From sequence record NC_055712.1: a DNA stretch of 64,000 nt, one strand, 5' to 3'. The position numbers and the translations under genes are program-made. Positions 4,560 to 51,884 of this stretch are shown here, piece after piece. The DNA is from Escherichia phage phT4A. How positions within the stretch are numbered: position 1 is the first letter of the stretch; each line of letters opens with the position of its first letter. The notes beneath the pieces were generated by a model. That model was not told where the DNA came from. It saw nothing but the letters and a program-made list of their open reading frames with translations, and did no database searches.

Positions 4560-6054
4560 ATGAATGACATTAAAGTAGTAGTAAAATCCTCTGGTGTACG
4601 CCAGCCGTTTGACAAAGAAAAAATATACAAAGTGCTCAAGTGGGCCTGTGATGGTCATAATATCGATGTTCGTGCATTCCTTGAAAATGTATTAGAACTG
4701 ATCCGCGATGGTATGACTACCAAACAAATTCAACGTATCGCTATCAAGTATGCAGCAGATCATATTTCTGTTAAAGAACCGGATTGGCAATACGTAGCAT
4801 CGAATCTTGAAATGTTTGCATTGCGTAAAGACGTTTACGGTCAGTTCGATCCTATCCCGTTCTACGATCACATCGTTAAAATGGTTGAAGCGGGGAAATA
4901 CGATAAAGAGATCCTGGAAAAATACAGCAAGCAAGATATTCAAGTTTTCGAACGTGCAATTGATCATGATAAGGATTTTGAATTTTCGTATGCTGGTTCC
5001 CAACAGTTAATCGGGAAATATCTGGTTCAGGATCGCGATACTGGCGAAATCTTTGAAACCCCTCAGTATGCGTTTATGCTTATTGCGATGTGTCTGCATC
5101 AGGAAGAAACTGGGTTAGCACAGGTTACGCATATCGTTGATTTTTATAACGCAATTTCCGATCGCAAACTGTCTCTACCGACTCCAATTATGGCGGGTGT
5201 ACGTACTCCTACGCGCCAGTTCTCCAGTTGTGTAGTAATTGAATCGGGTGATTCTCTTGGTTCTCTTAACGCTGTAACCTCTGCGATCGTGAAGTATATT
5301 TCACAACGTGCTGGTATTGGGGTTAACGCGGGACATATTCGCGCAATGGGTTCTAAAATCCGTGGTGGTGAAGCTGTTCATACTGGTGTGATTCCTTTCT
5401 GGAAACATATTCAAACCGCTGTTAAATCCTGTTCACAGGGTGGCGTTCGTGGTGGTGCTGCAACACTGTATTATCCTTTCTGGCATCTGGAAGTTGAAAA
5501 CCTTCTGGTGTTGAAGAACAACAAAGGCGTAGAAGAAAACCGCGTTCGTCATCTTGATTATGGTGTACAGCTTAACCAGTTGATGTATAAACGCTTAATG
5601 AATCGTGATTACATTACGCTGTTTAGTCCGGATGTTGCTAACGATCGTCTGTATGATCTGTTCTATGAAGCTGATCAGACTGCATTTGAAGAACTGTATG
5701 AAAGCCTGGAAAAAGATCCAACTGTTCGTAAGAAACGCATCAAAGCGGTTGACCTGTTCCAACTTTTAGCACAGGAACGCGCACAGACAGGACGCAAATA
5801 CATTTTCAACACTCATCACGTCAACCAACAGGGTAGTTTTACGGTTCCTGTCCGTATGTCTAACCTGTGTTGTGAGATTGCGATCCCAACGTCGCCGCTG
5901 GATGACGATGATAAAATGGCTGGTGAAATCGGATTGTGTACGCTAATGGCTATCGTTCTGGATAACGCTGATATCAGCGAATTCCCGAAACTCACGCGTA
6001 TTGCAGTACGTGCGCTTGTATAACCTGTTGGATTACCGTAACTACCCTGTAAAA
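4560..6054 (+). CDS. nrdA: ribonucleotide reductase large subunit, 5' part only (frameshifted near 6019, then lost in gap)
   Basis: ATP-cone N-terminus, catalytic NLCCEIAIPT; frame stops at 6023 but the next frame reads DNLLDYRNYPVK, the expected NrdA continuation; C-terminal ~250 aa missing. Confidence 0.9.
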
Positions 6055-6154
6055 NNNNNNNNNNNNNNNNNNNNNNNNNNNNNNNNNNNNNNNNNNNNNN
6101 NNNNNNNNNNNNNNNNNNNNNNNNNNNNNNNNNNNNNNNNNNNNNNNNNNNNNN
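6055..6154. other. assembly gap (100 N)
   Basis: Run of exactly 100 n; flanking sequence is not collinear (nrdA interior on left, non-nrdA sequence on right), so true length is unknown. Confidence 0.99.
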
Positions 6155-6284
6155 GCATGTGGTTAATGTTTTGTGTGGTAAGAAAAGATCACTTGACTTT
6201 TTGGATATATAAATGTATGAAAATCTGAATTCAACTTAACCCTTGATAAATGTGGTCGCATCGATCGAAGTTTTTGTTTAAAGT

Positions 6285-6591
6285 GTGGGTGAACTTAGGC
6301 ATTGTGTTTATTTTTATTGCAAATTAAACGATGAAATAGTATATGTTGGTAAATGTCGGGGATATGTGGAAGCGTTTAGACACATATCGCAATGCAAAGT
6401 ATTGGAGAGAAGCCAACCCCAGCAACATCTTAAAAACGTGTCGATTGGAAATGGCTATCAAAAAACGAAAAACTGTGAAACTTATCGTGACTACTCACGA
6501 TGAAAATACATATCATGATTATGAAATCAACATGATACGAAAATACAACCCTGAATGGAATAAACAGCACTATGACAAAGGCACAAACTAA
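6285..6591 (+). pseudogene. small GIY-YIG endonuclease-like gene split by a frameshift
   Basis: Frame 0: CVYFYCKLNDEIVYVGK (GIY-YIG); continuation DMWKRLDTYRNAKYW..IRKYNPEWN is in +1 frame after the G4 run at 6358-6361. Confidence 0.5.
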
Positions 6592-9038: not shown

Positions 9039-9421
9039 ATCTGTTTATGACTATTGGCGTTCCGGGTAGTGGAAAAACTACCTGGGCGCATGAGAAAGCC
9101 CGTGAATTGGGTAATACTGTTACGATCTCTCGCGATGATCTGCGTAGCTCTTTGTATAATGCNNNNNNNNNNNNNNNNNNNNNNNNNNNNNNNNNNNNNN
9201 NNNNNNNNNNNNNNNNNNNNNNNNNNNNNNNNNNNNNNNNNNNNNNNNNNNNNNNNNNNNNNGATACCAGGACAGATTTTGAAGTAAAAGAAGAAATTTT
9301 GTTTGACAAGATTTTAGATAAGTATTATCCTGTTATTGCAGTGGACGATAGAGACACTCCGGTCGGGATGTGGCGAGCAAACGGGATTCCGTGCTTACAA
9401 GTCGATTATGGTGATTTCTGA
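9035..9421 (+). CDS. pseT: polynucleotide 5'-kinase/3'-phosphatase, interior lost in gap
   Basis: N-term kinase P-loop MTIGVPGSGKTTWA; C-term phosphatase VIAVDDRDTPVGMWRANGIPCLQVDYGDF matches T4 Pnk C-terminus as recalled; about 200 aa missing. Confidence 0.85.
   Translation: MNLFMTIGVPGSGKTTWAHEKARELGNTVTISRDDLRSSLYNXXXXXXXXXXXXXXXXXXXXXXXXXXXXXXXXXXDTRTDFEVKEEILFDKILDKYYPVIAVDDRDTPVGMWRANGIPCLQVDYGDF
9163..9262. other. assembly gap (100 N)
   Basis: Run of 100 n inside pseT. Confidence 0.99.
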
Positions 9422-18970: not shown

Positions 18971-19009
18971 AAGAAGCCTCTTGCAATGCAGGGGGCTTTT
19001 TTGTATAGT
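18971..19009 (+). promoter_or_regulatory. hairpin-embedded early promoter cassette (PeSL-like)
   Basis: AAGAAGCCTC-TTGCAA-17 nt-TATAGT, followed by leader CATCGAAACGAAACAGACAAAAGGAA. Confidence 0.65.
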
Positions 19010-19046
19010 GTGTTCATCGAAACGAAACAGACAAAAGGAACATCAC

Positions 19047-19337
19047 ATGAACTTCATCGATATCAACAAAGATTTGGAAGGTAAAAACATCAAACTCGTT
19101 AACCGTGAAATGTTAGAGAGTCTTGGTAACGGTGGCGAAAAATTCAGTGAAGAATTCTATAACAATTTATCGTTGATGACGGTCAAGCGCGTTGATGTTC
19201 AGGGTGGTTCTGGTTGGGTTTCTGCAATTCCGGTTTCCCTTGTAGATCAAGCAACATATGACCCAGTTGCGGATTCATGGGATCTGGAAATGCCGTTGGT
19301 ATTCGAAGAAGTCATGAAGTGTTACGAAATCGCATAA
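19047..19337 (+). CDS. hypothetical protein (96 aa)
   Basis: Start moved to ATG 19047 after promoter and leader. Confidence 0.65.
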   Translation: MNFIDINKDLEGKNIKLVNREMLESLGNGGEKFSEEFYNNLSLMTVKRVDVQGGSGWVSAIPVSLVDQATYDPVADSWDLEMPLVFEEVMKCYEIA

Positions 19338-19347
19338 GGGTATTATT

Positions 19348-19659
19348 ATGAATAGCGGAAAATTACAAATGAAAGTTAGCGAAGAAGAAGTTAAAGAGCG
19401 GTTATCGGTAGCAAGAAGATTCCTTGAATCTATCGACCCTGATAAACTTGGAAAATGCCCTGATACGATTTGCCTTAATTGTGGGCGTTCTGTTCTTGTT
19501 GGTAAGTGTTGCGATAATCCAAATATAGTTGTGATGGAAAAGGAACAAGTATCCCCCGAAACATGGGATCAGATCCAGGAAATCATTAAAAACCCTCCAG
19601 CGCCAACTAAGAAATTACGTGAATTGATGACAAGGAAAATGAAATATGAGCAAATTTAA
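19348..19659 (+). CDS. hypothetical Cys-rich protein (103 aa)
   Basis: ORF track; CPDTICLNCG..GKCCDNP possible zinc site. Confidence 0.6.
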   Translation: MNSGKLQMKVSEEEVKERLSVARRFLESIDPDKLGKCPDTICLNCGRSVLVGKCCDNPNIVVMEKEQVSPETWDQIQEIIKNPPAPTKKLRELMTRKMKYEQI

Positions 19660-20023
19660 ATTGAGTGCAACCGTTCGCCTTATTCGTTGGAATGGTGAAG
19701 AGATCCGTTATGATGACCCCGAATTCGCCCATGAAATTCTTTCGCATCGTTTGGGATTGAAAAACGCGTCATTGGTTCAAACTGTTAAAACATCAGCAGA
19801 GCCGGAAATTTGGCGTTGTGTTATTCTGGATCTCGATAACAACATTGATTATGATGATCCTAAGAACTATCCTCTTCTGGAAGCACAAGTTGAGAATGCT
19901 CCAGAAGACAGACAGTGTTTTTTGGTTGAGTTACCACGCGAACATTACGAAAACATCATAAAGGCCCGTAAAAAGGTCAATAACAATGTTTTCGATCTCC
20001 ACCTCGGATTGTTTGAGGATTAA
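19646..20023 (+). CDS. hypothetical protein (125 aa)
   Basis: ORF track; stop overlaps stop of convergent gene (TTAA). Confidence 0.6.
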   Translation: MSKFKLSATVRLIRWNGEEIRYDDPEFAHEILSHRLGLKNASLVQTVKTSAEPEIWRCVILDLDNNIDYDDPKNYPLLEAQVENAPEDRQCFLVELPREHYENIIKARKKVNNNVFDLHLGLFED

Positions 20024-21129
20024 GTACTGCTAGTTGTGTTCGTAGTAGCGGCGCTGGTAGGTTCCCCCACCTGTATACATTCAAGTGTTTGCAGGTGGAA
20101 ATCTTTTGATACGTCTCGAACACATTCAACGATCAGATATTTTCCTGCATACTCTTCCCCAAATACCTCAATGATTGCCCCTACCTTAACATCTAAACGA
20201 CCCTGCTTTATATCGAATCGGATCCGGCGTTCATAGCTGGATAACAATTGCATTTTAGACGCCTGGAAAGGTTTACCTTCTGAATCTGGGTTCTGAAAGT
20301 TGGTATCATAGATTGCATTACGGTTTGTGAAGATCCATGTATTTTCTGTGTCTGTATCAGCCAGTATGTCACCGTACATCTTTTTATCAGTCAATGACAG
20401 ACTAAAGAAACTGGCATCTTTAAACAGCGTTGTGTTATCCTTATGGGTAATATACTGGGCTTCTGTGAATATGACAGTATCACCAACAAACACGTTATCA
20501 ACGTTAAATTTGTATGCTGGGATCGGTGTCTGGGCCAGAATGTCAGTTGAACTTTTAAGGAAAATACCGGAACCATCTTCCCACAGATAACAGAAGTCAG
20601 AAGAAACTACACTTTGCCCGTTGTCCCTGATATAATCAAATATATCCTGATATGTACCATTTAGACATCCAGGAGGGATACGTATGTTACCGCCGTCAAC
20701 TTCGGGGGTAAGTAGTTTCATTTTGCTATACAGTGCCGTCATACACTCTGTAATCGTCTGTACGGCGTTGTTACTAAATGAACGGGCAAACTTACGTCTG
20801 AACGTTTTATGCAGCGGAGAGAGGTTCATACGCAGCACAGAACGGTTCTTATCGTCAGTATCTACGTTAGAGTAAAGCAATCCGTAATAATGTTGTTCCT
20901 GTGTACCGTTATACTGGAAAGATACCTGTATGATCGGCTGGATAAGTTGCTGATAGATTAACTGTGCGTCGTATATCTGCATCAGCGTTTCCGATGAGCC
21001 GTTAATCATCGTCTTTTCACTAAACGAGACAAGAGCGGGTAGCAATTCAGTATATGCGTTATCAATGTATTTTTCGTATGATGTATATAATTTAATCGAT
21101 GTGACTCGATTGACGATTTTTTCAGCCAT
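20020..21129 (-). CDS. 27: baseplate hub subunit, gp27-like (tentative)
   Basis: 369 aa, divergent from the 28-29-48-54 block; C-terminal S/T-rich tail and overall layout resemble T4 gp27 as recalled; strong SD AGGAGGG. Confidence 0.6.
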   Translation of the reverse strand: MAEKIVNRVTSIKLYTSYEKYIDNAYTELLPALVSFSEKTMINGSSETLMQIYDAQLIYQQLIQPIIQVSFQYNGTQEQHYYGLLYSNVDTDDKNRSVLRMNLSPLHKTFRRKFARSFSNNAVQTITECMTALYSKMKLLTPEVDGGNIRIPPGCLNGTYQDIFDYIRDNGQSVVSSDFCYLWEDGSGIFLKSSTDILAQTPIPAYKFNVDNVFVGDTVIFTEAQYITHKDNTTLFKDASFFSLSLTDKKMYGDILADTDTENTWIFTNRNAIYDTNFQNPDSEGKPFQASKMQLLSSYERRIRFDIKQGRLDVKVGAIIEVFGEEYAGKYLIVECVRDVSKDFHLQTLECIQVGEPTSAATTNTTSST

Positions 21130-21151
21130 AAAAATCCCTCCTAATATATCC

Positions 21152-21171
21152 TATTTACTAAATAGTAAATA
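21152..21171. promoter_or_regulatory. inverted repeat TATTTACTA-AA-TAGTAAATA in divergent hub-gene intergenic (late-promoter-like)
   Basis: Each strand presents AGTAAATA, two positions off the T4 late consensus TATAAATA. Confidence 0.35.
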
Positions 21172-21198
21172 ATGACCCAGGTTCAATTTGAGGCAATA

Positions 21199-21774
21199 AT
21201 GAAAAATAAAACTCTTGATAAATTTATGACTACACGGCTTGAAATCAAGAAGACTAACGTTAAAACCGTTCATCTTCCGGATGGAACAGCCATTGAGATC
21301 CCTAAGATGTCGTATCGTCATTTTGTAAAGATTAAGACTCTGAAAGATGACCCAGTTGCGATCATGCGATTCATCATTGATGACATCAAACCGCGTGAAC
21401 TAACAGCAGCGGAAATTGAATTTGTGTTGATCCATATGTATGCACACAATAACGCTGATTATGCCAATACGCTTAAAGAAATTGGGCTAAATCTTGATGA
21501 CCTCAAAATCTCCGAACCTTGCTATGATTTTACGTTTGACAATGTGCGGTTAGTCTTTGACAAACCCAGCCTGTTAAATGCTCACCTTCCGTTCCTCATC
21601 AAAGAGGCATATGTTGACGGTAAGCCAGTAGAATTAACTGAGGATAAACGAGACGAATTAATTAATTGCCTGTACCGATTCGAATATGATCAGGTATCGC
21701 GTGGTGTCCTCCAGGAAGTATACATTATTCATGAGGGGAAAACCATCAAAGGGCTTAACATCATTGGTGAATGA
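21199..21774 (+). CDS. baseplate hub protein, gp28-like (tentative)
   Basis: Start moved to ATG 21199 (SD GAGG); 191 aa; paralogous in layout to 25537 and 26277 products; precedes gp29. Confidence 0.55.
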   Translation: MKNKTLDKFMTTRLEIKKTNVKTVHLPDGTAIEIPKMSYRHFVKIKTLKDDPVAIMRFIIDDIKPRELTAAEIEFVLIHMYAHNNADYANTLKEIGLNLDDLKISEPCYDFTFDNVRLVFDKPSLLNAHLPFLIKEAYVDGKPVELTEDKRDELINCLYRFEYDQVSRGVLQEVYIIHEGKTIKGLNIIGE

Positions 21775-21776
21775 TA

Positions 21777-23551
21777 ATGGCTAACTCTTATTTCAACGAA
21801 GAACAAAAGAAAAAGTTCTGAACAGAAACAGCAACAAACAACCAGCGGTCACCAAAGTAACAGCCTCCCTTGATGCTGAAAGCGCCCGTGACCTAAAGGA
21901 AATCAACGATAACACCCTTGAAAGTGCAATCAATACTCTTGATATCAAAGAAGGGTTGAAATCGTTCGAAGAAAAATTCCGTGACAAATTCGCGGGGTTC
22001 AAAGAACAATACGAAGAGGATAAAAAGGAATCATTAGCCGAACAACTACCTGATTTCGTCGGCCCGATCCGTCCTATATCCTTAACCGATGATAACTCAA
22101 AAACTGTTGACAATACAGTAAACGTTAACCAAAATGGTCAGTTCGGTAAACTGGAAGAAAACACCGAATCTATTTTTCATGCTATTAACAAACTTGTTGA
22201 TTTATATGAAAATACTGATAAGCATAAGCCGCTTCCTGAACCAGTGGAAGAACCTGATCCGTATGTAGACACTAAGAAAAAACGCATCAATGATGATGAT
22301 GACAAAAGAAGCAAAACTCTGGATAGTATTGCTAAAAGTCTGGTTTCTATTAAAGGTTTTACATCGCAGATCCTTAGCCGTTTCATTGGTTACTCTCTGG
22401 AAGCAATGGCAAAGTTTGCTAAATGGACGCTCCTTATTGGTTCGTTAATCTTTACATTCGATGTGTTGCGCGTCACAATACGCAAATGGTTCGAAGATAT
22501 CCTGAAAGAAGGGGAATCCTCAAAGAAACTATTTGGTACATATCTGGGTAACGTAAAGGCTATCGTAACAAAGATCGAAGAAGGTTTGAACAACTTCAAT
22601 ATGAACAACTTAGGCGAATCACTTCGTGATTTGTTCGTTGAGCCTATGAAGTTGTTGGGGCAAACTGTACAAACGGCAATCACTGAGGGTATCGGTCGTC
22701 TTATTCAATCATTGGGTGAATCAACTGGCATAGACAGCATTACCAATGCCGGACGCGGAATGCAGATCACCGCTTTACGTGATAAACAGAAATTTGGTCT
22801 TGAATTGACTAAAGAAGATATTCTTATGATCAAGAAACAGGAACTAGAAGACCAAAAAGCGGCATTAGAAAAAGAAGATAAAGCTATTGCAGCACGTCAT
22901 GCATTAACAATAACTCCTTCTCAAATTCCTAATGGTTCTATCTATAAAGTTGCTCCTACTGATTATCAAGAAAGAAATCAGAAAACCGTAGATGCTGATA
23001 AAGAACGGCTTGATAATATGAAGAAAGCAACGGAAGAAATGCAGAAACAATACGATTTAGCTAAAAGCAGCGAAGAGGAAGCACAAAAATTAGCCGATGA
23101 GGAAAACAAACGCAACCGCGCACGTATAGAAGAAGCAAAAAGGTTAGAACAAGCGAGGAAGGAAGGAAAACAGCCGCCAGAAGGTGAAGAGAAAAAGGGT
23201 GATGATCTGTTGGGTAAAGCAACCAACTATGCTAACTCTGAAAATCTGGATGCAGCCGATATCAAATACATTAACGATGAACTGTTGGATCAGCTTGAAA
23301 AACGTCGTAATGAAGGCAATCTGGACGATGTACAGAAGGATAGAATCTCTGACCTTATCGAGAAATTGCAAAACAAGATTGCAGCCCGTACAGAATCCAG
23401 CGCCCCGATCGACGCACAGCCACCGTTAGCAGCAAATAAACCGGATGCTGATAAAGCAAGCAACATTCAGGTTAACAACAAAACTGTTAACAACAACGTA
23501 ACTCATTCAGTACAACGCACAGAGCATAAACCGCTCGTAGCGCTGGCATAA
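21777..23551 (+). CDS. 29: tail length determinator/baseplate hub gp29-like, needs -1 shift at A5 run 21810-21814
   Basis: ATG 21777 frame (MANSYFNEEQKKKF*) stops at 21821; the -1 frame is open from 21785 to 23551; joined length ~591 aa vs T4 gp29 590 aa; coiled-coil rich. Confidence 0.75.
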
Positions 23552-23561
23552 GGAACATATA

Positions 23562-24635
23562 ATGAAGTTTTCTATTATTGATGACAGTATAAACACTCTC
23601 AAAAATATTAAAAATCGCGGTATCCCCTCTGGGGGTGCCGCAATCACAGAATCAGTATTAAAGCAAACTATCGTTACCGCCGAATTTCCGGCCCAACGTG
23701 CAGCAGGTATCGATAACGCTTATAATGCTTCGAGTCTGTATAATAACGGCCTTCTGTTCACTGCATATGATTTTAATGGTGTTGGTAGTAAAGACAACTA
23801 TCGTTCATTACGTCAGGCAGCACAGAACCCAAAACAAATACTATCATCTGCGACGGGTAATGTTAAGTACAAACAAGTGTTGAATAGTTCTATTGGTACT
23901 ATGGAACCTGTTTGCCAGATCCTGCTACCGCGAAGCCTGAACGATAACGAAGTAAACAGCCACCGCTATCAAGATGCAAACGATAGTTTCTTAACCAAAG
24001 GGTTGAGCCGTGTTGTTTCAAACATGGTATGGGGCGCTGTAGAATCCGTTTCAGGCGGTATTATGGCAGACCGAAGAGAAGCCCTTGATGTTGGTACTAA
24101 AGCCGCTTTCCAGGGTTCTGACAAGCGAACAAAGATGTATTACAATACATTCGTGATTGAAAGCCGTAATGATTTGCTGGAACTGATTAAAATCTACTAT
24201 CTGTTTACTGTTCTGGGATATGGCACAACTTCTGGCGGTACTGCTAAAGAGGTTGCTGCATTGGTTAAACAGTATTACGGTGTTCTGGGTGCTAAAACCG
24301 CTAACGCAATTAGCCCTTCCAGTAACCCAGTAACAGCGTCAGATTTTGATAATAGTCTGGGTAATGACGTGGTTGATTTCATTTCAAACGTAGAGGTTAT
24401 TAAATCGCCTCCTGTCTGGTTTATTCGTGATTTCCAGTCTGGGGATTCCTTGCGTTTACCTCATTCAACCTTTGGGCCAGCAGGTATTACCAGTGTTCGC
24501 TTTGGTCGTTCTATTGATAATATTGTAAATACATTAAGAGAATCACCAAATACCCCGATCTCACTTGAGGTCGAAATTCAATTTATGGAACTGATCGATA
24601 TGCGTCAGGATTCTATTTTTGATACAAATTACTAA
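23562..24635 (+). CDS. 48: baseplate/tail-tube junction protein gp48-like
   Basis: 357 aa directly after gp29 (T4 gp48 is 364 aa); synteny-based. Confidence 0.6.
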   Translation: MKFSIIDDSINTLKNIKNRGIPSGGAAITESVLKQTIVTAEFPAQRAAGIDNAYNASSLYNNGLLFTAYDFNGVGSKDNYRSLRQAAQNPKQILSSATGNVKYKQVLNSSIGTMEPVCQILLPRSLNDNEVNSHRYQDANDSFLTKGLSRVVSNMVWGAVESVSGGIMADRREALDVGTKAAFQGSDKRTKMYYNTFVIESRNDLLELIKIYYLFTVLGYGTTSGGTAKEVAALVKQYYGVLGAKTANAISPSSNPVTASDFDNSLGNDVVDFISNVEVIKSPPVWFIRDFQSGDSLRLPHSTFGPAGITSVRFGRSIDNIVNTLRESPNTPISLEVEIQFMELIDMRQDSIFDTNY

Positions 24636-36940: not shown

Positions 36941-37040
36941 NNNNNNNNNNNNNNNNNNNNNNNNNNNNNNNNNNNNNNNNNNNNNNNNNNNNNNNNNNNN
37001 NNNNNNNNNNNNNNNNNNNNNNNNNNNNNNNNNNNNNNNN
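36941..37040. other. assembly gap (100 N)
   Basis: Run of 100 n joining two unrelated coding frames. Confidence 0.99.
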
Positions 37041-37906: not shown

Positions 37907-37945
37907 ATAATACAAAAGCCCTCACGAGAACGCAAGGGCTTTTTA
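37907..37945 (-). promoter_or_regulatory. hairpin-embedded early promoter cassette (PeSL-like)
   Basis: Minus strand: AAAAAGCCC-TTGCGT-17 nt-TATTAT-ACACACAT. Confidence 0.6.
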
Positions 37946-37977: not shown

Positions 37978-38007
37978 CCGCACATAAAAGATCATCTATA
38001 TGTGCGG
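37978..38007 (-). terminator. hairpin terminator after the Nudix gene
   Basis: CCGCACATA-N12-TATGTGCGG, weak U-tract. Confidence 0.45.
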
Positions 38008-38043: not shown

Positions 38044-38622
38044 TCAAGCAACCCCCGTAAAGGCGTTTACTATCTGGAAATGATCATCGAAGAATTCCCC
38101 TTGTCGTTGCACGACCTCATGCATAGGTAGCCAGAACGCGTCTGCTGCATCATCAGCACCGCCCATGATACGAGGCAATGAACCATCGTTATTAGGTTCG
38201 AGCTTGATATACTGTGCTACAGTCGGTTTTGAGAAGTACACCGAACGTTTCGGATGATCGAACAGCATCGAATTACGGATAGAACCACGAATAACCTTTT
38301 CAGGTACTTTAATTCGTACTTCTTCCAGTAATTCACGGATCGCACAATCAAGGAACGTTTCGTTACCGTTTTTGTGTCCACCCGGAAGCGCTAACGCATC
38401 TTTACCAGGCGCAAACTTACGACGGATTACTAACACGTGGTTATTACATACGACCACTGAATCAGCCGTGCAACAGTTCAGAGAATCCGGATACGGATAT
38501 TTTTTGAACTTGTCAATCTCTCGTTGCCAGTGCGCATCTTCATGGGACAAACGCTGGAATTCTTTTGTTTGTGTCCATTCATCGATAAAGGAAACCGTAG
38601 TGCTAGGCGCATATTTTAACAA
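38044..38622 (-). CDS. Nudix hydrolase (ADP-ribose pyrophosphatase-like), TTG start or C-terminal half of a NadM-Nudix fusion
   Basis: Nudix box GGHKNGNETFLDCAIRELLEEVRI; no ATG start; frame is -1 relative to the NMNAT gene and overlaps its stop. Confidence 0.8.
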   Translation of the reverse strand: MLKYAPSTTVSFIDEWTQTKEFQRLSHEDAHWQREIDKFKKYPYPDSLNCCTADSVVVCNNHVLVIRRKFAPGKDALALPGGHKNGNETFLDCAIRELLEEVRIKVPEKVIRGSIRNSMLFDHPKRSVYFSKPTVAQYIKLEPNNDGSLPRIMGGADDAADAFWLPMHEVVQRQGEFFDDHFQIVNAFTGVA

Positions 38623-39104
38623 ATCTTCGTCCCAGCTTCATGGTGTTCCCAGATAATTTTGCGTAAATTGGTCGAGGACAGATCCTGGTCTCCAACCTTC
38701 ACAGATTCAACCGGAATATGATTCCATCCGAATGCTTTAAGCCAGTAAGAATCTTTGTCTTTTTCGTACCCGACGATCGCAATTCGGTCATTTCGAGTTT
38801 CATCGATTGCCATACGAACACGGGATTTCCATTTTTCCTCGTTATAGAGATAATCCGGAATGTGAGCGAATTTGATTCTGGCTGCATCTTCAACATCAAG
38901 TTTGCAGATAGACCAGCGAGTGATCATTGCTTGACGCTGTTTAGCGGTCAATGGGTTTAATGTGTTCGGATATGCATAAGCAGAACCGATCAGAATGTAA
39001 ACCGTATCAGCAACAGCAAGGGCTTCCCTTACCATTTTCTCATGACCATAGTGAAAAGGTTGAAAACGTCCAATTACTACAGCTTTATCATATTTGTGTT
39101 TCAT
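38616..39104 (-). CDS. NadM-type nicotinamide-nucleotide adenylyltransferase
   Basis: GRFQPFHYGH and SSTNLRK motifs; ATG 39104 with SD GGAG preferred over track GTG 39116. Confidence 0.85.
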   Translation of the reverse strand: MKHKYDKAVVIGRFQPFHYGHEKMVREALAVADTVYILIGSAYAYPNTLNPLTAKQRQAMITRWSICKLDVEDAARIKFAHIPDYLYNEEKWKSRVRMAIDETRNDRIAIVGYEKDKDSYWLKAFGWNHIPVESVKVGDQDLSSTNLRKIIWEHHEAGTKIC

Positions 39105-39129
39105 AACGTGCTCCACGTTTAAAGGTTAA

Positions 39130-39228
39130 TCATAAAACAGACGCAATTATTAAAACACCAAACAATCCACCAATGAAACCAAAGAATAGTGAAATGAGTA
39201 TTGTCAATACGATCTGTTTTATGTTCAT
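39130..39228 (-). CDS. single-TM micro-protein (32 aa)
   Basis: Manual: MNIKQIVLTILISLFFGFIGGLFGVLIIASVL; weak SD. Confidence 0.35.
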   Translation of the reverse strand: MNIKQIVLTILISLFFGFIGGLFGVLIIASVL

Positions 39229-39280
39229 TATAGTATTCTCGTTTTAGATGTCAAGCCCCCAAAGAGGGGGCTTTAAAACA

Positions 39281-40207
39281 TTATTTACGAGAATCGAAAA
39301 TCACTTTACCCGCATAATCCGAACCCATTACAGTTTGAGGTACGCCACCTTTATAGCGGGTAGAGTAGTTCATCTGTACATCCAGTTCTTTCCAGCGGAT
39401 CATTTCCGGTGTAATGGTGCGTTGCAGGGCGGCGTTGGCTTCTGCTTCTTTCTTCGCTGCATACAGACGGGCATCAGCATCACGTTCGTTAGCGATTGCA
39501 GCGTTTTCACGCGCCTGGCGATCGGCTTCCGCTTGTTTTACTGCTTGTAATGAAGTCTGTTCTACTTTTTGCAGTTCAGCTTTAGCAGCGTTAACCTGTT
39601 CTTCGCGGATCTTCGTGTTAGTTACCTGTTCCATGATAACTTCCGGCAGGGTGATATCCTGCAAGAATACCTGTTTCACAGTGTAACCGTAAGGCCGTGC
39701 ATAATCTTCTACTTCCTGCTGAATTGCGATTTGCAGTTGGTTTTGGATCTTCGCATCAAACAGGTCTTGCGCTTTTGGTACGGATTTACCAAATTCGCGA
39801 ACAGTGGAAAGCAGTTTTTCAGTTACATACTTATCCAGTGCCTGATCCTGATTACCCGCGTTGATACGGTTGATCGGTGCTTTGCTACCGTCGAATTGCA
39901 GCATTACGGTCATATCCACAGTGGATTTAAATTTATCCTGGGACGGAACCTGTAATTTGTCGAACTTCATCGCGATGTCTTTGGTGCTGAACGTATCAAA
40001 CGTTGCCAGCGGGTTTACAATGTGGAAACCAGGCAGTACGGGTTTCGGTGATACTTTACCCATGAAGGTTTCAGTTTTAACCGTACCGTCTTGCACAATG
40101 GTATACATGTTAGGCACTAACCACAGTGCTGCGACTACGCCCAGAGCGATCAGAGAGGTTTTCTTCGGGTTGTTCACGATAGTGTTTAAGTTCATCATAA
40201 TTTCCAT
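39281..40207 (-). CDS. SPFH/band-7 (prohibitin/HflC-like) membrane protein
   Basis: N-terminal TM LIALGVVAALWLV, SPFH core, Ala/Glu-rich coiled-coil tail (AKAELQKVEQTSLQAVKQAEADRQARENAA). Confidence 0.85.
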   Translation of the reverse strand: MEIMMNLNTIVNNPKKTSLIALGVVAALWLVPNMYTIVQDGTVKTETFMGKVSPKPVLPGFHIVNPLATFDTFSTKDIAMKFDKLQVPSQDKFKSTVDMTVMLQFDGSKAPINRINAGNQDQALDKYVTEKLLSTVREFGKSVPKAQDLFDAKIQNQLQIAIQQEVEDYARPYGYTVKQVFLQDITLPEVIMEQVTNTKIREEQVNAAKAELQKVEQTSLQAVKQAEADRQARENAAIANERDADARLYAAKKEAEANAALQRTITPEMIRWKELDVQMNYSTRYKGGVPQTVMGSDYAGKVIFDSRK

Positions 40208-49179: not shown

Positions 49180-49590
49180 TTAATAATCGTAAAGATCACC
49201 GAAACATTCGTCATACTCGCGTTTACGTTCAATTTGCTCGTTTCTACGATCTTCCATATATGGAGGAAGACGGTTTTCATTGACTTCATCAATGTAAGCC
49301 TGTGCATCCTCTTTTGTTAGAAAGAATGCATGGAAATTGTACCCGTTGTACCCGTTGTACCCGTTCATACTACGATCTTCAAGAGAGAATTCTGTGTGAC
49401 AGTCCCAGTCTTTGTACAGGGTGATACATTTAGCAAACAGCCCAATACCGCGATGAATGTATGGGAATCCAGTAACAATCATCTTGCTACCCATTTCCGC
49501 ATTTTCTCCGTTCACACAGAATACTTCATACATGATCGCGCCTGGTTTAACATCTTTCTTAACAGCACGTTTTTCAAAAGCACTTTTCAT
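49180..49590 (-). CDS. hypothetical protein (136 aa) with an (NGY)3 repeat
   Basis: ORF track. Confidence 0.6.
   Translation of the reverse strand: MKSAFEKRAVKKDVKPGAIMYEVFCVNGENAEMGSKMIVTGFPYIHRGIGLFAKCITLYKDWDCHTEFSLEDRSMNGYNGYNGYNFHAFFLTKEDAQAYIDEVNENRLPPYMEDRRNEQIERKREYDECFGDLYDY
49339..49365. repeat. perfect 9-nt tandem repeat (GTACCCGTT)x3
   Basis: Read directly; in frame, encodes NGYNGYNGY on the minus strand. Confidence 0.9.
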
Positions 49591-50340: not shown

Positions 50341-50601
50341 TTATTTGAAGCGAATTGTGCTATTTTTGAAAAATAGTCCAGAGCACACAGCACCTTCAAT
50401 TTTCACCCCTGTAGGGCTTTTAGCAACGAACCCTGTTGCGTAGGTGTCTTTCTCATCACATGCGAACCAGGCGTGGCCTGTGTACGTGATATCGCTAAAC
50501 CCGTTAGCAGTCAGAATACGTTCGGCTTCTTTCTCATCGGTGCATCCGGATTGTGCTAAAACGACAATAACGACTAACACCAAAGCAATAATATATTTCA
50601 T
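50341..50601 (-). CDS. lipoprotein (86 aa)
   Basis: MKYIIALVLVVIVVLAQSGC lipobox. Confidence 0.65.
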   Translation of the reverse strand: MKYIIALVLVVIVVLAQSGCTDEKEAERILTANGFSDITYTGHAWFACDEKDTYATGFVAKSPTGVKIEGAVCSGLFFKNSTIRFK

Positions 50602-50602
50602 G

Positions 50603-51034
50603 TTAAACTCTTTTTAAGTTGGTTTTACTGGCTTCAATCCAGTACACGGGATCAGAATAGTTACCGCACATACCCAGTAACACAGTTGTACATCCTAAAT
50701 GATCGGAAGGTCTCAATCCATCAGGATGAAAAGGCAATTCGTTAACACCGATACTGGTAGCAAAAAGAGCACCTCCAGTACTGTAAAATGTTTTGATATG
50801 ATCGTATGCATCATCAGGCCACTGAAAACGATAAGTTTTATTGTCAATGGTTACTGTATACATATCATATTCCGTAAACAACGGATCTTTTCCTTGTGTT
50901 GCCCCATACAGAGCGCCGCGCCATTCAACCAGATTTGCTTCAATGTCGCTTACACAAATTTCGTTACCCATACGCAAATCATGAAGGATCCCTTCAATGG
51001 TACGAATAGCCCCACTAAGTTCATTAGTTAACAT
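50603..51034 (-). CDS. hypothetical protein (143 aa)
   Basis: ORF track. Confidence 0.6.
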   Translation of the reverse strand: MLTNELSGAIRTIEGILHDLRMGNEICVSDIEANLVEWRGALYGATQGKDPLFTEYDMYTVTIDNKTYRFQWPDDAYDHIKTFYSTGGALFATSIGVNELPFHPDGLRPSDHLGCTTVLLGMCGNYSDPVYWIEASKTNLKRV

Positions 51035-51044
51035 AGAGTTTCCT

Positions 51045-51218
51045 TTAAATCGGTTTAATGGTTTTCAGGTGTAGTTTAGCATAAGAAGAACCAAATGAGT
51101 TACCATTATGATCAAACTTATGTTCTTCACTCTTCCAGTATTTCCCCGATTTCATCAAGGGTATACGCTTCTTACCTGCTGTTATCGTTTCAACCATTCC
51201 GGTATGAGTGAATGTCAT
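51045..51218 (-). CDS. hypothetical small protein (57 aa)
   Basis: Manual: MTFTHTGMVETITAGKKRIPLMKSGKYWKSEEHKFDHNGNSFGSSYAKLHLKTIKPI; ATGA overlap. Confidence 0.4.
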   Translation of the reverse strand: MTFTHTGMVETITAGKKRIPLMKSGKYWKSEEHKFDHNGNSFGSSYAKLHLKTIKPI

Positions 51219-51562
51219 GATATACCCTCTTCTTTCAGCACTTCCCAGATCAGTTTATCAAGGTGCATCAGGTTCCACATAACCGAATCATAAGAACCCA
51301 GTGAGCGGGAGTAAATCACTCCCCATGAACGATAACTTTTCTGGAATGCTTCTGCACTATCTACATCATACGGCATATCATCACCGGATGCAATCAAAAG
51401 TTTAAGGATCATCAGACTGTTCAGAAGTTTTGAACTAGCGTCTTGTGCTTGTACTTTTGCACAATAATTTTCAATAATCGCTTTTGCCTTTGGTTCGGTG
51501 ATGCGTCCATTTTTGCATCGCTCTTTGTACACATACATAAGTTCATCGATTATTTCTTGCAT
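51215..51562 (-). CDS. hypothetical protein (115 aa)
   Basis: ORF track; SD AGGAAAG. Confidence 0.6.
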   Translation of the reverse strand: MQEIIDELMYVYKERCKNGRITEPKAKAIIENYCAKVQAQDASSKLLNSLMILKLLIASGDDMPYDVDSAEAFQKSYRSWGVIYSRSLGSYDSVMWNLMHLDKLIWEVLKEEGIS

Positions 51563-51884
51563 ACATTCTTTCCTTCTGTTCTGTGCTCATGCCATACAAC
51601 TGAGAGCGTATACGGTCTTGTATACGACGCGTTTCGTTTTGCATCAGTTGGTTTGAAAGAATCAAATCGACCACCGCGCCGCGAACTTTCCATAGATAAT
51701 CAATCATCGCCATATCTTCATCAGTATGGAAACCCTTCGCATCACATTCATAGATAATGCTTTGCCTTTCCGCCATTGCCATTTCTGCTGTCGCCGGAGT
51801 AGCCAGAGAATATTCATACTTCTCGATCAATGATTCCAGTGTACGTGGTTTTACGGGAATGTCAACAGTTATTGGACGAATCAT
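51543..51884 (-). CDS. hypothetical protein (113 aa)
   Basis: Start moved to ATG 51884 (ATGA overlap). Confidence 0.55.
   Translation of the reverse strand: MIRPITVDIPVKPRTLESLIEKYEYSLATPATAEMAMAERQSIIYECDAKGFHTDEDMAMIDYLWKVRGAVVDLILSNQLMQNETRRIQDRIRSQLYGMSTEQKERMYARNNR

Follow-up and report, generated by a model that had tools for sequence, protein, structure and literature searches.

The locus lies on the minus strand of the window, that is, the whole stretch of 64 000 nucleotides from Escherichia phage phT4A (sequence record NC_055712.1) that was analysed. The gene, the two ORFs into which it appears to be divided and the site that separates them are as follows:

38044..39104, minus strand: natV orthologue (bifunctional NadM-type NMN adenylyltransferase/Nudix ADP-ribose pyrophosphatase), 1061 nt versus 1062 nt in relatives, with the same ATG and the same stop.
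39104..38616, minus strand: upstream NMNAT ORF, 162 aa from ATG to TAA; residues 1–156 are native NMNAT sequence, followed by six out-of-frame residues (AGTKIC) and the TAA.
38622..38044, minus strand: downstream Nudix ORF, 192 aa counted from a TTG; it comprises the C-terminal ~30 residues of the NMNAT domain and, after them, the Nudix domain.
38636, minus strand: site of the missing base, with a single G versus GG in all relatives checked; codon 157 (Gly).

The 162-aa ORF contains both GRFQPFHYGH and SSTNLRK and was recognized by the Pfam profile PF01467 (cytidylyltransferase-like) with 45.2 bits for a cutoff of 21. The 192-aa ORF scored 50.8 bits against PF00293 (NUDIX; cutoff 21.1) and corresponds to positions 175–354 of the 354 positions of the bifunctional profile NF003786. 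The Nudix box (GX5EX7REUXEEXGU) is present here as G-x5-E-x7-REUxEExRU (letters GHKNGNETFLDCAIRELLEEVRI). Every Glu and Arg of the box is kept, all the acidic residues included, and its final G is replaced by R, as in Synechocystis 2QJO (RELKEETRL). At the junction, the TTG of the Nudix ORF and the stop of the NMNAT ORF overlap by 7 nt (TTGTTAA). Upstream of this TTG the Nudix frame reads TGA AGC TGG GAC GAA GAT TTG, i.e. five sense codons, and in the downstream ORF the native frame can be read from W158 onwards. The motifs, the Nudix box, the frames, the TTG, the five codons and the overlap had all been reported in a preliminary description of this DNA and were found unchanged on re-reading. 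In the window as written, the two domains are not carried by one polypeptide of about 340–355 aa; they are once one G is restored.

The intact form of the gene was sought in relatives. The 1.4-kb region is 99.0–99.6% identical at the DNA level to Klebsiella Slopekvirus phages (Straboviridae, T4-like), and 171 phage records match it. The four relatives examined (Miro, CP-p-KP-21068, R2_1 and KLB21) each have one CDS of 1062 nt here, which is annotated in two of them as a bifunctional NMN adenylyltransferase/NUDIX hydrolase. When the junctions were aligned, all four relatives read CATGAAGGCTGGGAC and the window read CATGAAGCTGGGAC, the sole difference being one G of the GG. With one G added to the window, the product has 353 aa; it shows 100% identity to the proteins of CP-p-KP-21068 and R2_1 and differs by one or two residues from those of KLB21 and Miro. 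Since the restored protein is 100% identical over 353 aa, there has been no decay or adaptation downstream of the missing base. Judging from these alignments, the region holds one natV gene, that of a Klebsiella Slopekvirus, in which one G is missing; most likely, this is not a biological split. The preliminary description had proposed either a genuine split or a fused gene affected by an indel of 1 nt. The indel is upheld by the GG of the relatives and by the restoration of the 353-aa protein. It had been placed in ACGAAGAT; according to the alignment, the missing base is instead a G of the GG located a few bases upstream, at 38636.

The state of the gene was then surveyed more widely. The repaired protein was used as a tblastn query and matched 467 phage records, 434 of which cover at least 80% of the query. 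Sixty rows were sampled evenly from these 467 records, from 100% down to 26% identity, and all 60 contain the protein in a single piece and in one frame, the natV of KVP40 among them. The comparison of fused and split orthologues that had been suggested in the preliminary description thus gave the fused state in the four annotated relatives and in all the sampled rows.

The position of the break relative to the domains was determined with NCBIfam stand-alone NMNAT profiles, from which the limits of the NMNAT domain in the intact protein were taken:

NF002243, profile positions 2–171 of 175: residues 7–191 of the intact protein.
NF010365, profile positions 3–176 of 196: residues 4–187 of the intact protein.
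TIGR01527, profile positions 2–156 of 167: residues 8–177 of the intact protein.

The match to NF010365 reaches position 146 of 196 on the 162-aa ORF versus position 176 of 196 on the intact protein. With the domain delimited in this way, the break at codon 157 falls within the NMNAT domain, some 30 residues before its end, and does not coincide with a boundary between domains; it would shift the C-terminal helices of the NMNAT onto the 'Nudix' ORF. A break about 30 residues within the domain is unlike an evolved domain split. It is very improbable that the two ORFs form a genuine functional split, in which a shortened NMNAT would be accompanied by a Nudix enzyme with displaced NMNAT helices, the second protein being made by termination–reinitiation at the TTG. 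The 7-nt overlap and the in-frame TTG do exist, and T4-like phages commonly use translational coupling, but the intact gene has this TTG unchanged, as its codon for Leu-162, and a sequence scan of the 19 nt upstream of it detected no Shine–Dalgarno 4-mer. Moreover, the NMNAT domain, within the limits given by the stand-alone profiles, would lose about 30 residues, no split orthologue was present among the 60 rows sampled from the 467 phage records, and the sequence is, apart from one base, that of the fused relatives. An evolved domain split with reinitiation was therefore rejected because of the native Leu-162 TTG, the missing Shine–Dalgarno sequence and the cut inside the NMNAT domain, and the genuine-split part of the earlier proposal was given up on the same grounds.

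Programmed −1 ribosomal frameshifting, by which the fused NatV would be rebuilt from the two ORFs, has hardly any chance of being the explanation and was also dropped. The frames do overlap, over five sense codons and the 7-nt overlap, but no slippery heptamer X XXY YYZ was found in 38616–38640, the stretch bounded by the Nudix-frame TGA and the NMNAT-frame TAA. The protein is single-frame in every relative, so that there is no two-frame arrangement to conserve.

The family of the intact protein was examined next. GRFQPFHYGH occupies residues 12–21 and was aligned with GRFQPFHLGH of 2QJO, which gives the (H/T)xGH motif in its NadM form; SSTNLRK (residues 144–150) was aligned with SSTAIR of 2QJO, in agreement with SxTxxR. 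The intact phage orthologue aligns end to end with Synechocystis slr0787 (PDB 2QJO; E 5.9e-53) and with the Francisella tularensis protein (PDB 2QJT/2R5W; E 9.6e-45 with 2QJT). HxGH, SxTxxR and the Nudix box are common to these bacterial NadM–Nudix enzymes and the phage protein. The Pfam domain cut-offs were passed. Against the NCBIfam equivalog PRK05379, the intact orthologue scored 261.7 bits for a cut-off of 397, so that the phage protein is a divergent member of the family. The NatV of Vibrio phage KVP40 (KVP40.0162, one CDS) has the same two-domain architecture and is 40% identical over its full length, although KVP40 belongs to another phage genus and infects another host than Slopekvirus. 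The Slopekvirus NatV proteins (Miro CPT_Miro132, AKU44716.1; CP-p-KP-21068, XXQ00884.1; R2_1, WKC55382.1) are encoded by the same gene in the same position with the same flanking genes, and the window differs from them by the lack of one G at codon 157. By analogy with the KVP40, Synechocystis and Francisella homologues, the N-terminal NadM-type domain of NatV would adenylate NMN to give NAD+ and the C-terminal Nudix domain would hydrolyse ADP-ribose.

Signals that may govern the expression of natV were located on both sides of the gene:

39111..39114, minus strand: Shine–Dalgarno sequence GGAG, which precedes the natV ATG by 6 nt; the annotations of Miro and KLB21 have a corresponding ribosome_binding_site.
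39227..39254, minus strand: putative sigma-70 promoter-like site (TTGACA, 16 nt, TATAAT; 12/12 match to the consensus).
37978..38007, minus strand: first terminator-like hairpin downstream of natV (−17.1 kcal/mol, z −5.4), a terminator in the Miro annotation.
37913..37944, minus strand: second terminator-like hairpin, with a U-rich tail (−20.0 kcal/mol, z −6.7), a terminator in the Miro annotation.

This arrangement fits a small transcription unit that would be expressed early by the host polymerase, as would suit an enzyme of metabolism or counter-defence. A hydrophobic ORF of 32 codons (39130–39228, minus strand), hypothetical in the annotation of CP-p-KP-21068, lies between natV and the promoter-like site. 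Because the start codon of this ORF shares bases with the −10 hexamer (TATAATG), transcription from this promoter would probably begin downstream of the ATG. The gene located just upstream of natV (39281–40207, minus strand) encodes a 308-aa protein, for which the annotations of relatives give either 'lipoprotein' or HflK-like, the latter with a transmembrane and a signal-peptide domain. The closest relative (PV864763) has a separate gene annotated as a small Nudix hydrolase at 104387–104794, and synteny would place its counterpart in the window at ~59691–60098 (minus strand). If it is present, the phage would have a second Nudix enzyme besides NatV.

NatV and Nampt (NadV) would together perform the KVP40-type NAD+ salvage (NARP2), in which NAD+ would be rebuilt from nicotinamide, PRPP and ATP. 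NARP2 was defined with the Nampt and the Nmnat of KVP40 (bioRxiv 10.1101/2024.02.11.579819). According to the same work, 94% of the phages with a KVP40-type Nampt also have an Nmnat, and the pathway is found in about 1.1% of phages. NARP3, which consists of the PnuC and NadR pair, is a pathway distinct from NARP2.

The preliminary description had noted that no Nampt was in view. For the window this is correct: tblastn with the Slopekvirus Nampt detected no Nampt-like sequence in it at E ≤ 10. It is not a cause for concern, as in the closest relative Nampt (50448–51881) and natV (125464–126525) are ~74 kb apart. This spacing is larger than the reach of the window on either side of natV, and the absence of Nampt probably just reflects where the window ends; in the rest of the genome, Nampt would be expected ~74 kb from natV, beside dam and thioredoxin. 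In KVP40-type phages the Nampt and NatV genes are also apparently far apart, as in Slopekvirus. A human NAMPT probe, an approximate query used as a lead only, matched the nicotinamide/nicotinate phosphoribosyltransferase genes of KLB25 and KpF2. The Nampt of KpF2 (WMX17991.1) is a 477-aa protein assigned to PHROG 448 (E 6e-166), and no Prs-like gene is annotated beside its gene. In all, 111 Slopekvirus records carry this gene (DNA identity ≥95%), and the number of natV-carrying records is likewise 111. The Slopekvirus Nampt is 49% identical to KVP40-type NadV. For the genus, it falls in the Nmnat-associated Nampt clade and not in the Adps-associated Namat clade of NARP1, and it is accompanied by a homologue of the KVP40 Nmnat (NatV; 40% identity), the gene of which is frameshifted in the window. 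The NARP2-like assignment made beforehand was right: in Table S2 of the NARP paper, the Nampt of KP15 and that of Miro are classed as 'Nmnat-associated' (bioRxiv 10.1101/2024.02.11.579819). Since these two phages are already listed there, the assignment is not new. NAD salvage enzymes were also stated to be encoded by all Klebsiella Slopekvirus phages in a Klebsiella-phage paper of 2025 (PMC11845039). No biochemical or anti-defence test of a Slopekvirus NatV or Nampt was found in the literature searched.

The frequency of the deletion was evaluated in several collections. A 101-nt query centred on 38636 matched 111 phage records, with a best identity of 99.0%. Among the 111, all 60 records listed span 102 nt, and a span of 102 nt for a query of 101 nt means that the extra base is present in each of them. 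Not one of these 111 records has the deleted version carried by the window. A query of 40 nt, centred on 38636 and with each 28-mer seed crossing it, had no match in 50 697 phage records. The 33-mer bearing the deletion was absent from IMG/VR, from GTDB (one genome per species) and from JGI metagenome contigs, and the intact 34-mer was found in IMG/VR. Finally, an exact-protein look-up of the three possible ORF products in a large gene-position index returned nothing on record. By these searches, the deletion is a singleton.

The quality of the assembly was assessed by alignment of the window with CP-p-KP-21068. Three runs of 100 N are present:

6055–6154: run of 100 N replacing 2205 nt of CP-p-KP-21068.
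9163–9262: run of 100 N replacing 599 nt of CP-p-KP-21068.
36941–37040: run of 100 N replacing 878 nt of CP-p-KP-21068.

The runs interrupt nrdA/nrdB, the polynucleotide kinase gene, and the gene for a 335-aa nucleotidyltransferase together with the neighbouring gene for a 203-aa protein. They were rejected as length-preserving masks because 599–2205 nt of conserved genes are replaced; they are scaffold gaps of undefined size, and the window is consequently a draft assembly. To the right of the first gap (6213–6361), ten 1-nt insertions were counted, each of which lengthens a homopolymer, with no substitution among them. A series of this kind, right next to a gap, is characteristic of sequencing errors in homopolymer length near the end of a contig. 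On the left of the same gap, at a distance of 35 nt, a 1-nt insertion at ~6019 (plus strand) in nrdA (ribonucleotide reductase large subunit) makes the ORF 4560–6023 end early; it is probably a contig-end error as well.

Away from the gaps, two uncompensated frameshifts in coding sequences were counted in ~55 kb aligned, one in natV and the other in the following gene:

21771–23551, plus strand: gp29-like baseplate hub/tail-length gene (PHROG 7361; weakly PHROG 1283).

A TTT to TT deletion at ~21817 stops this gene after 16 codons (MIMANSYFNEEQKKKF, then a stop). In the remaining ORF (21956–23551), the match to PHROG 7361 begins only at profile position 62. A query of 101 nt around 21817 matched 111 records, none of them above 99.0%, and all 12 rows listed span 102 nt. 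The 40-mer at this site had no match in phage records; as it is A-rich and was possibly masked by the low-complexity filter, the uniqueness of the 21817 deletion rests on the 101-nt query and not on the 40-mer. The gene lies between gp28-like and gp48-like genes and we take it, by position, to be the counterpart of T4 gp29. In T4, gp29 is essential, and loss of gene 29 should be lethal if real.

Other differences from CP-p-KP-21068 were recorded. The baseplate block 18996–24257 is only ~90% identical, with many small indels in divergent stretches, and its flanks are 98–99% identical; from this pattern of identity it looks like a mosaic exchange with another Slopekvirus lineage. A 1-nt deletion at ~41013 (GGCTTCGGCC to GGCTTGGCC) affects the loop of an intergenic GC-rich hairpin and not a homopolymer. 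This hairpin sits between the matches of CDS0192 and CDS0193 of CP-p-KP-21068. Within a hypothetical gene, an in-frame tandem duplication of 9 nt (GGGTACAAC repeated) was observed at 49350–49359.

The change of GG to G at 38636 is probably a homopolymer-length error of sequencing or assembly in a gapped draft. The unique homopolymer deletion in the gp29-like gene and the cluster of errors at a contig end make a homopolymer error the most economical account. Two observations weigh against an artefact: the assembly is accurate away from gap edges (two uncompensated coding frameshifts in ~55 kb), and GG is a short homopolymer, less prone to errors of length than long runs are. The alternative is a real and recent loss of function, which we consider unlikely. 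In that case natV would be a pseudogene, its NMNAT truncated in the C-terminal helices and its Nudix part untranslated or poorly translated. The deletion stands in the deposited sequence, the assembly is highly accurate at the base level where no gap edge is near, and natV is an accessory gene. The authors who described NARP2 reported that NAD+ is produced in excess, that PRPP is consumed and that the operon is toxic in E. coli (bioRxiv 10.1101/2024.02.11.579819). An accessory gene whose pathway is costly, and toxic on cloning, makes a genuine knockout biologically plausible; it may be selected, since NARP2 uses PRPP and is costly on hosts without an NAD+-depleting defence. Nevertheless, a loss of function does not sit well with a deletion found in none of the 111 relatives nor in the three other collections, with 353 codons free of any further change, with a unique deletion of the same kind in the baseplate hub/tail-length gene or with the ten-error homopolymer cluster that adjoins a gap. 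A homopolymer-length error is thus retained as the probable origin of the missing G.

natV and Nampt are already known from Slopekvirus, where both have been annotated and assigned to NAD+ salvage of the NARP2 type. The sole unusual feature of the natV module in the window is the one-base deletion. It carries little weight for biology, and its practical value is one of caution: any further gene of the window that looks split or like a pseudogene, the gp29-like gene at 21771 for instance, should first be checked against relatives, since the assembly is a draft with gaps and contains errors of homopolymer length. If a genuine split into two proteins were true, it would be a natural and very recent fission of NatV, revealing which parts of the enzyme work alone. 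If the deletion were real, the phage would be a natural natV knockout, which could be used to gauge the contribution of NARP2 on Klebsiella hosts with NAD+-depleting defences.
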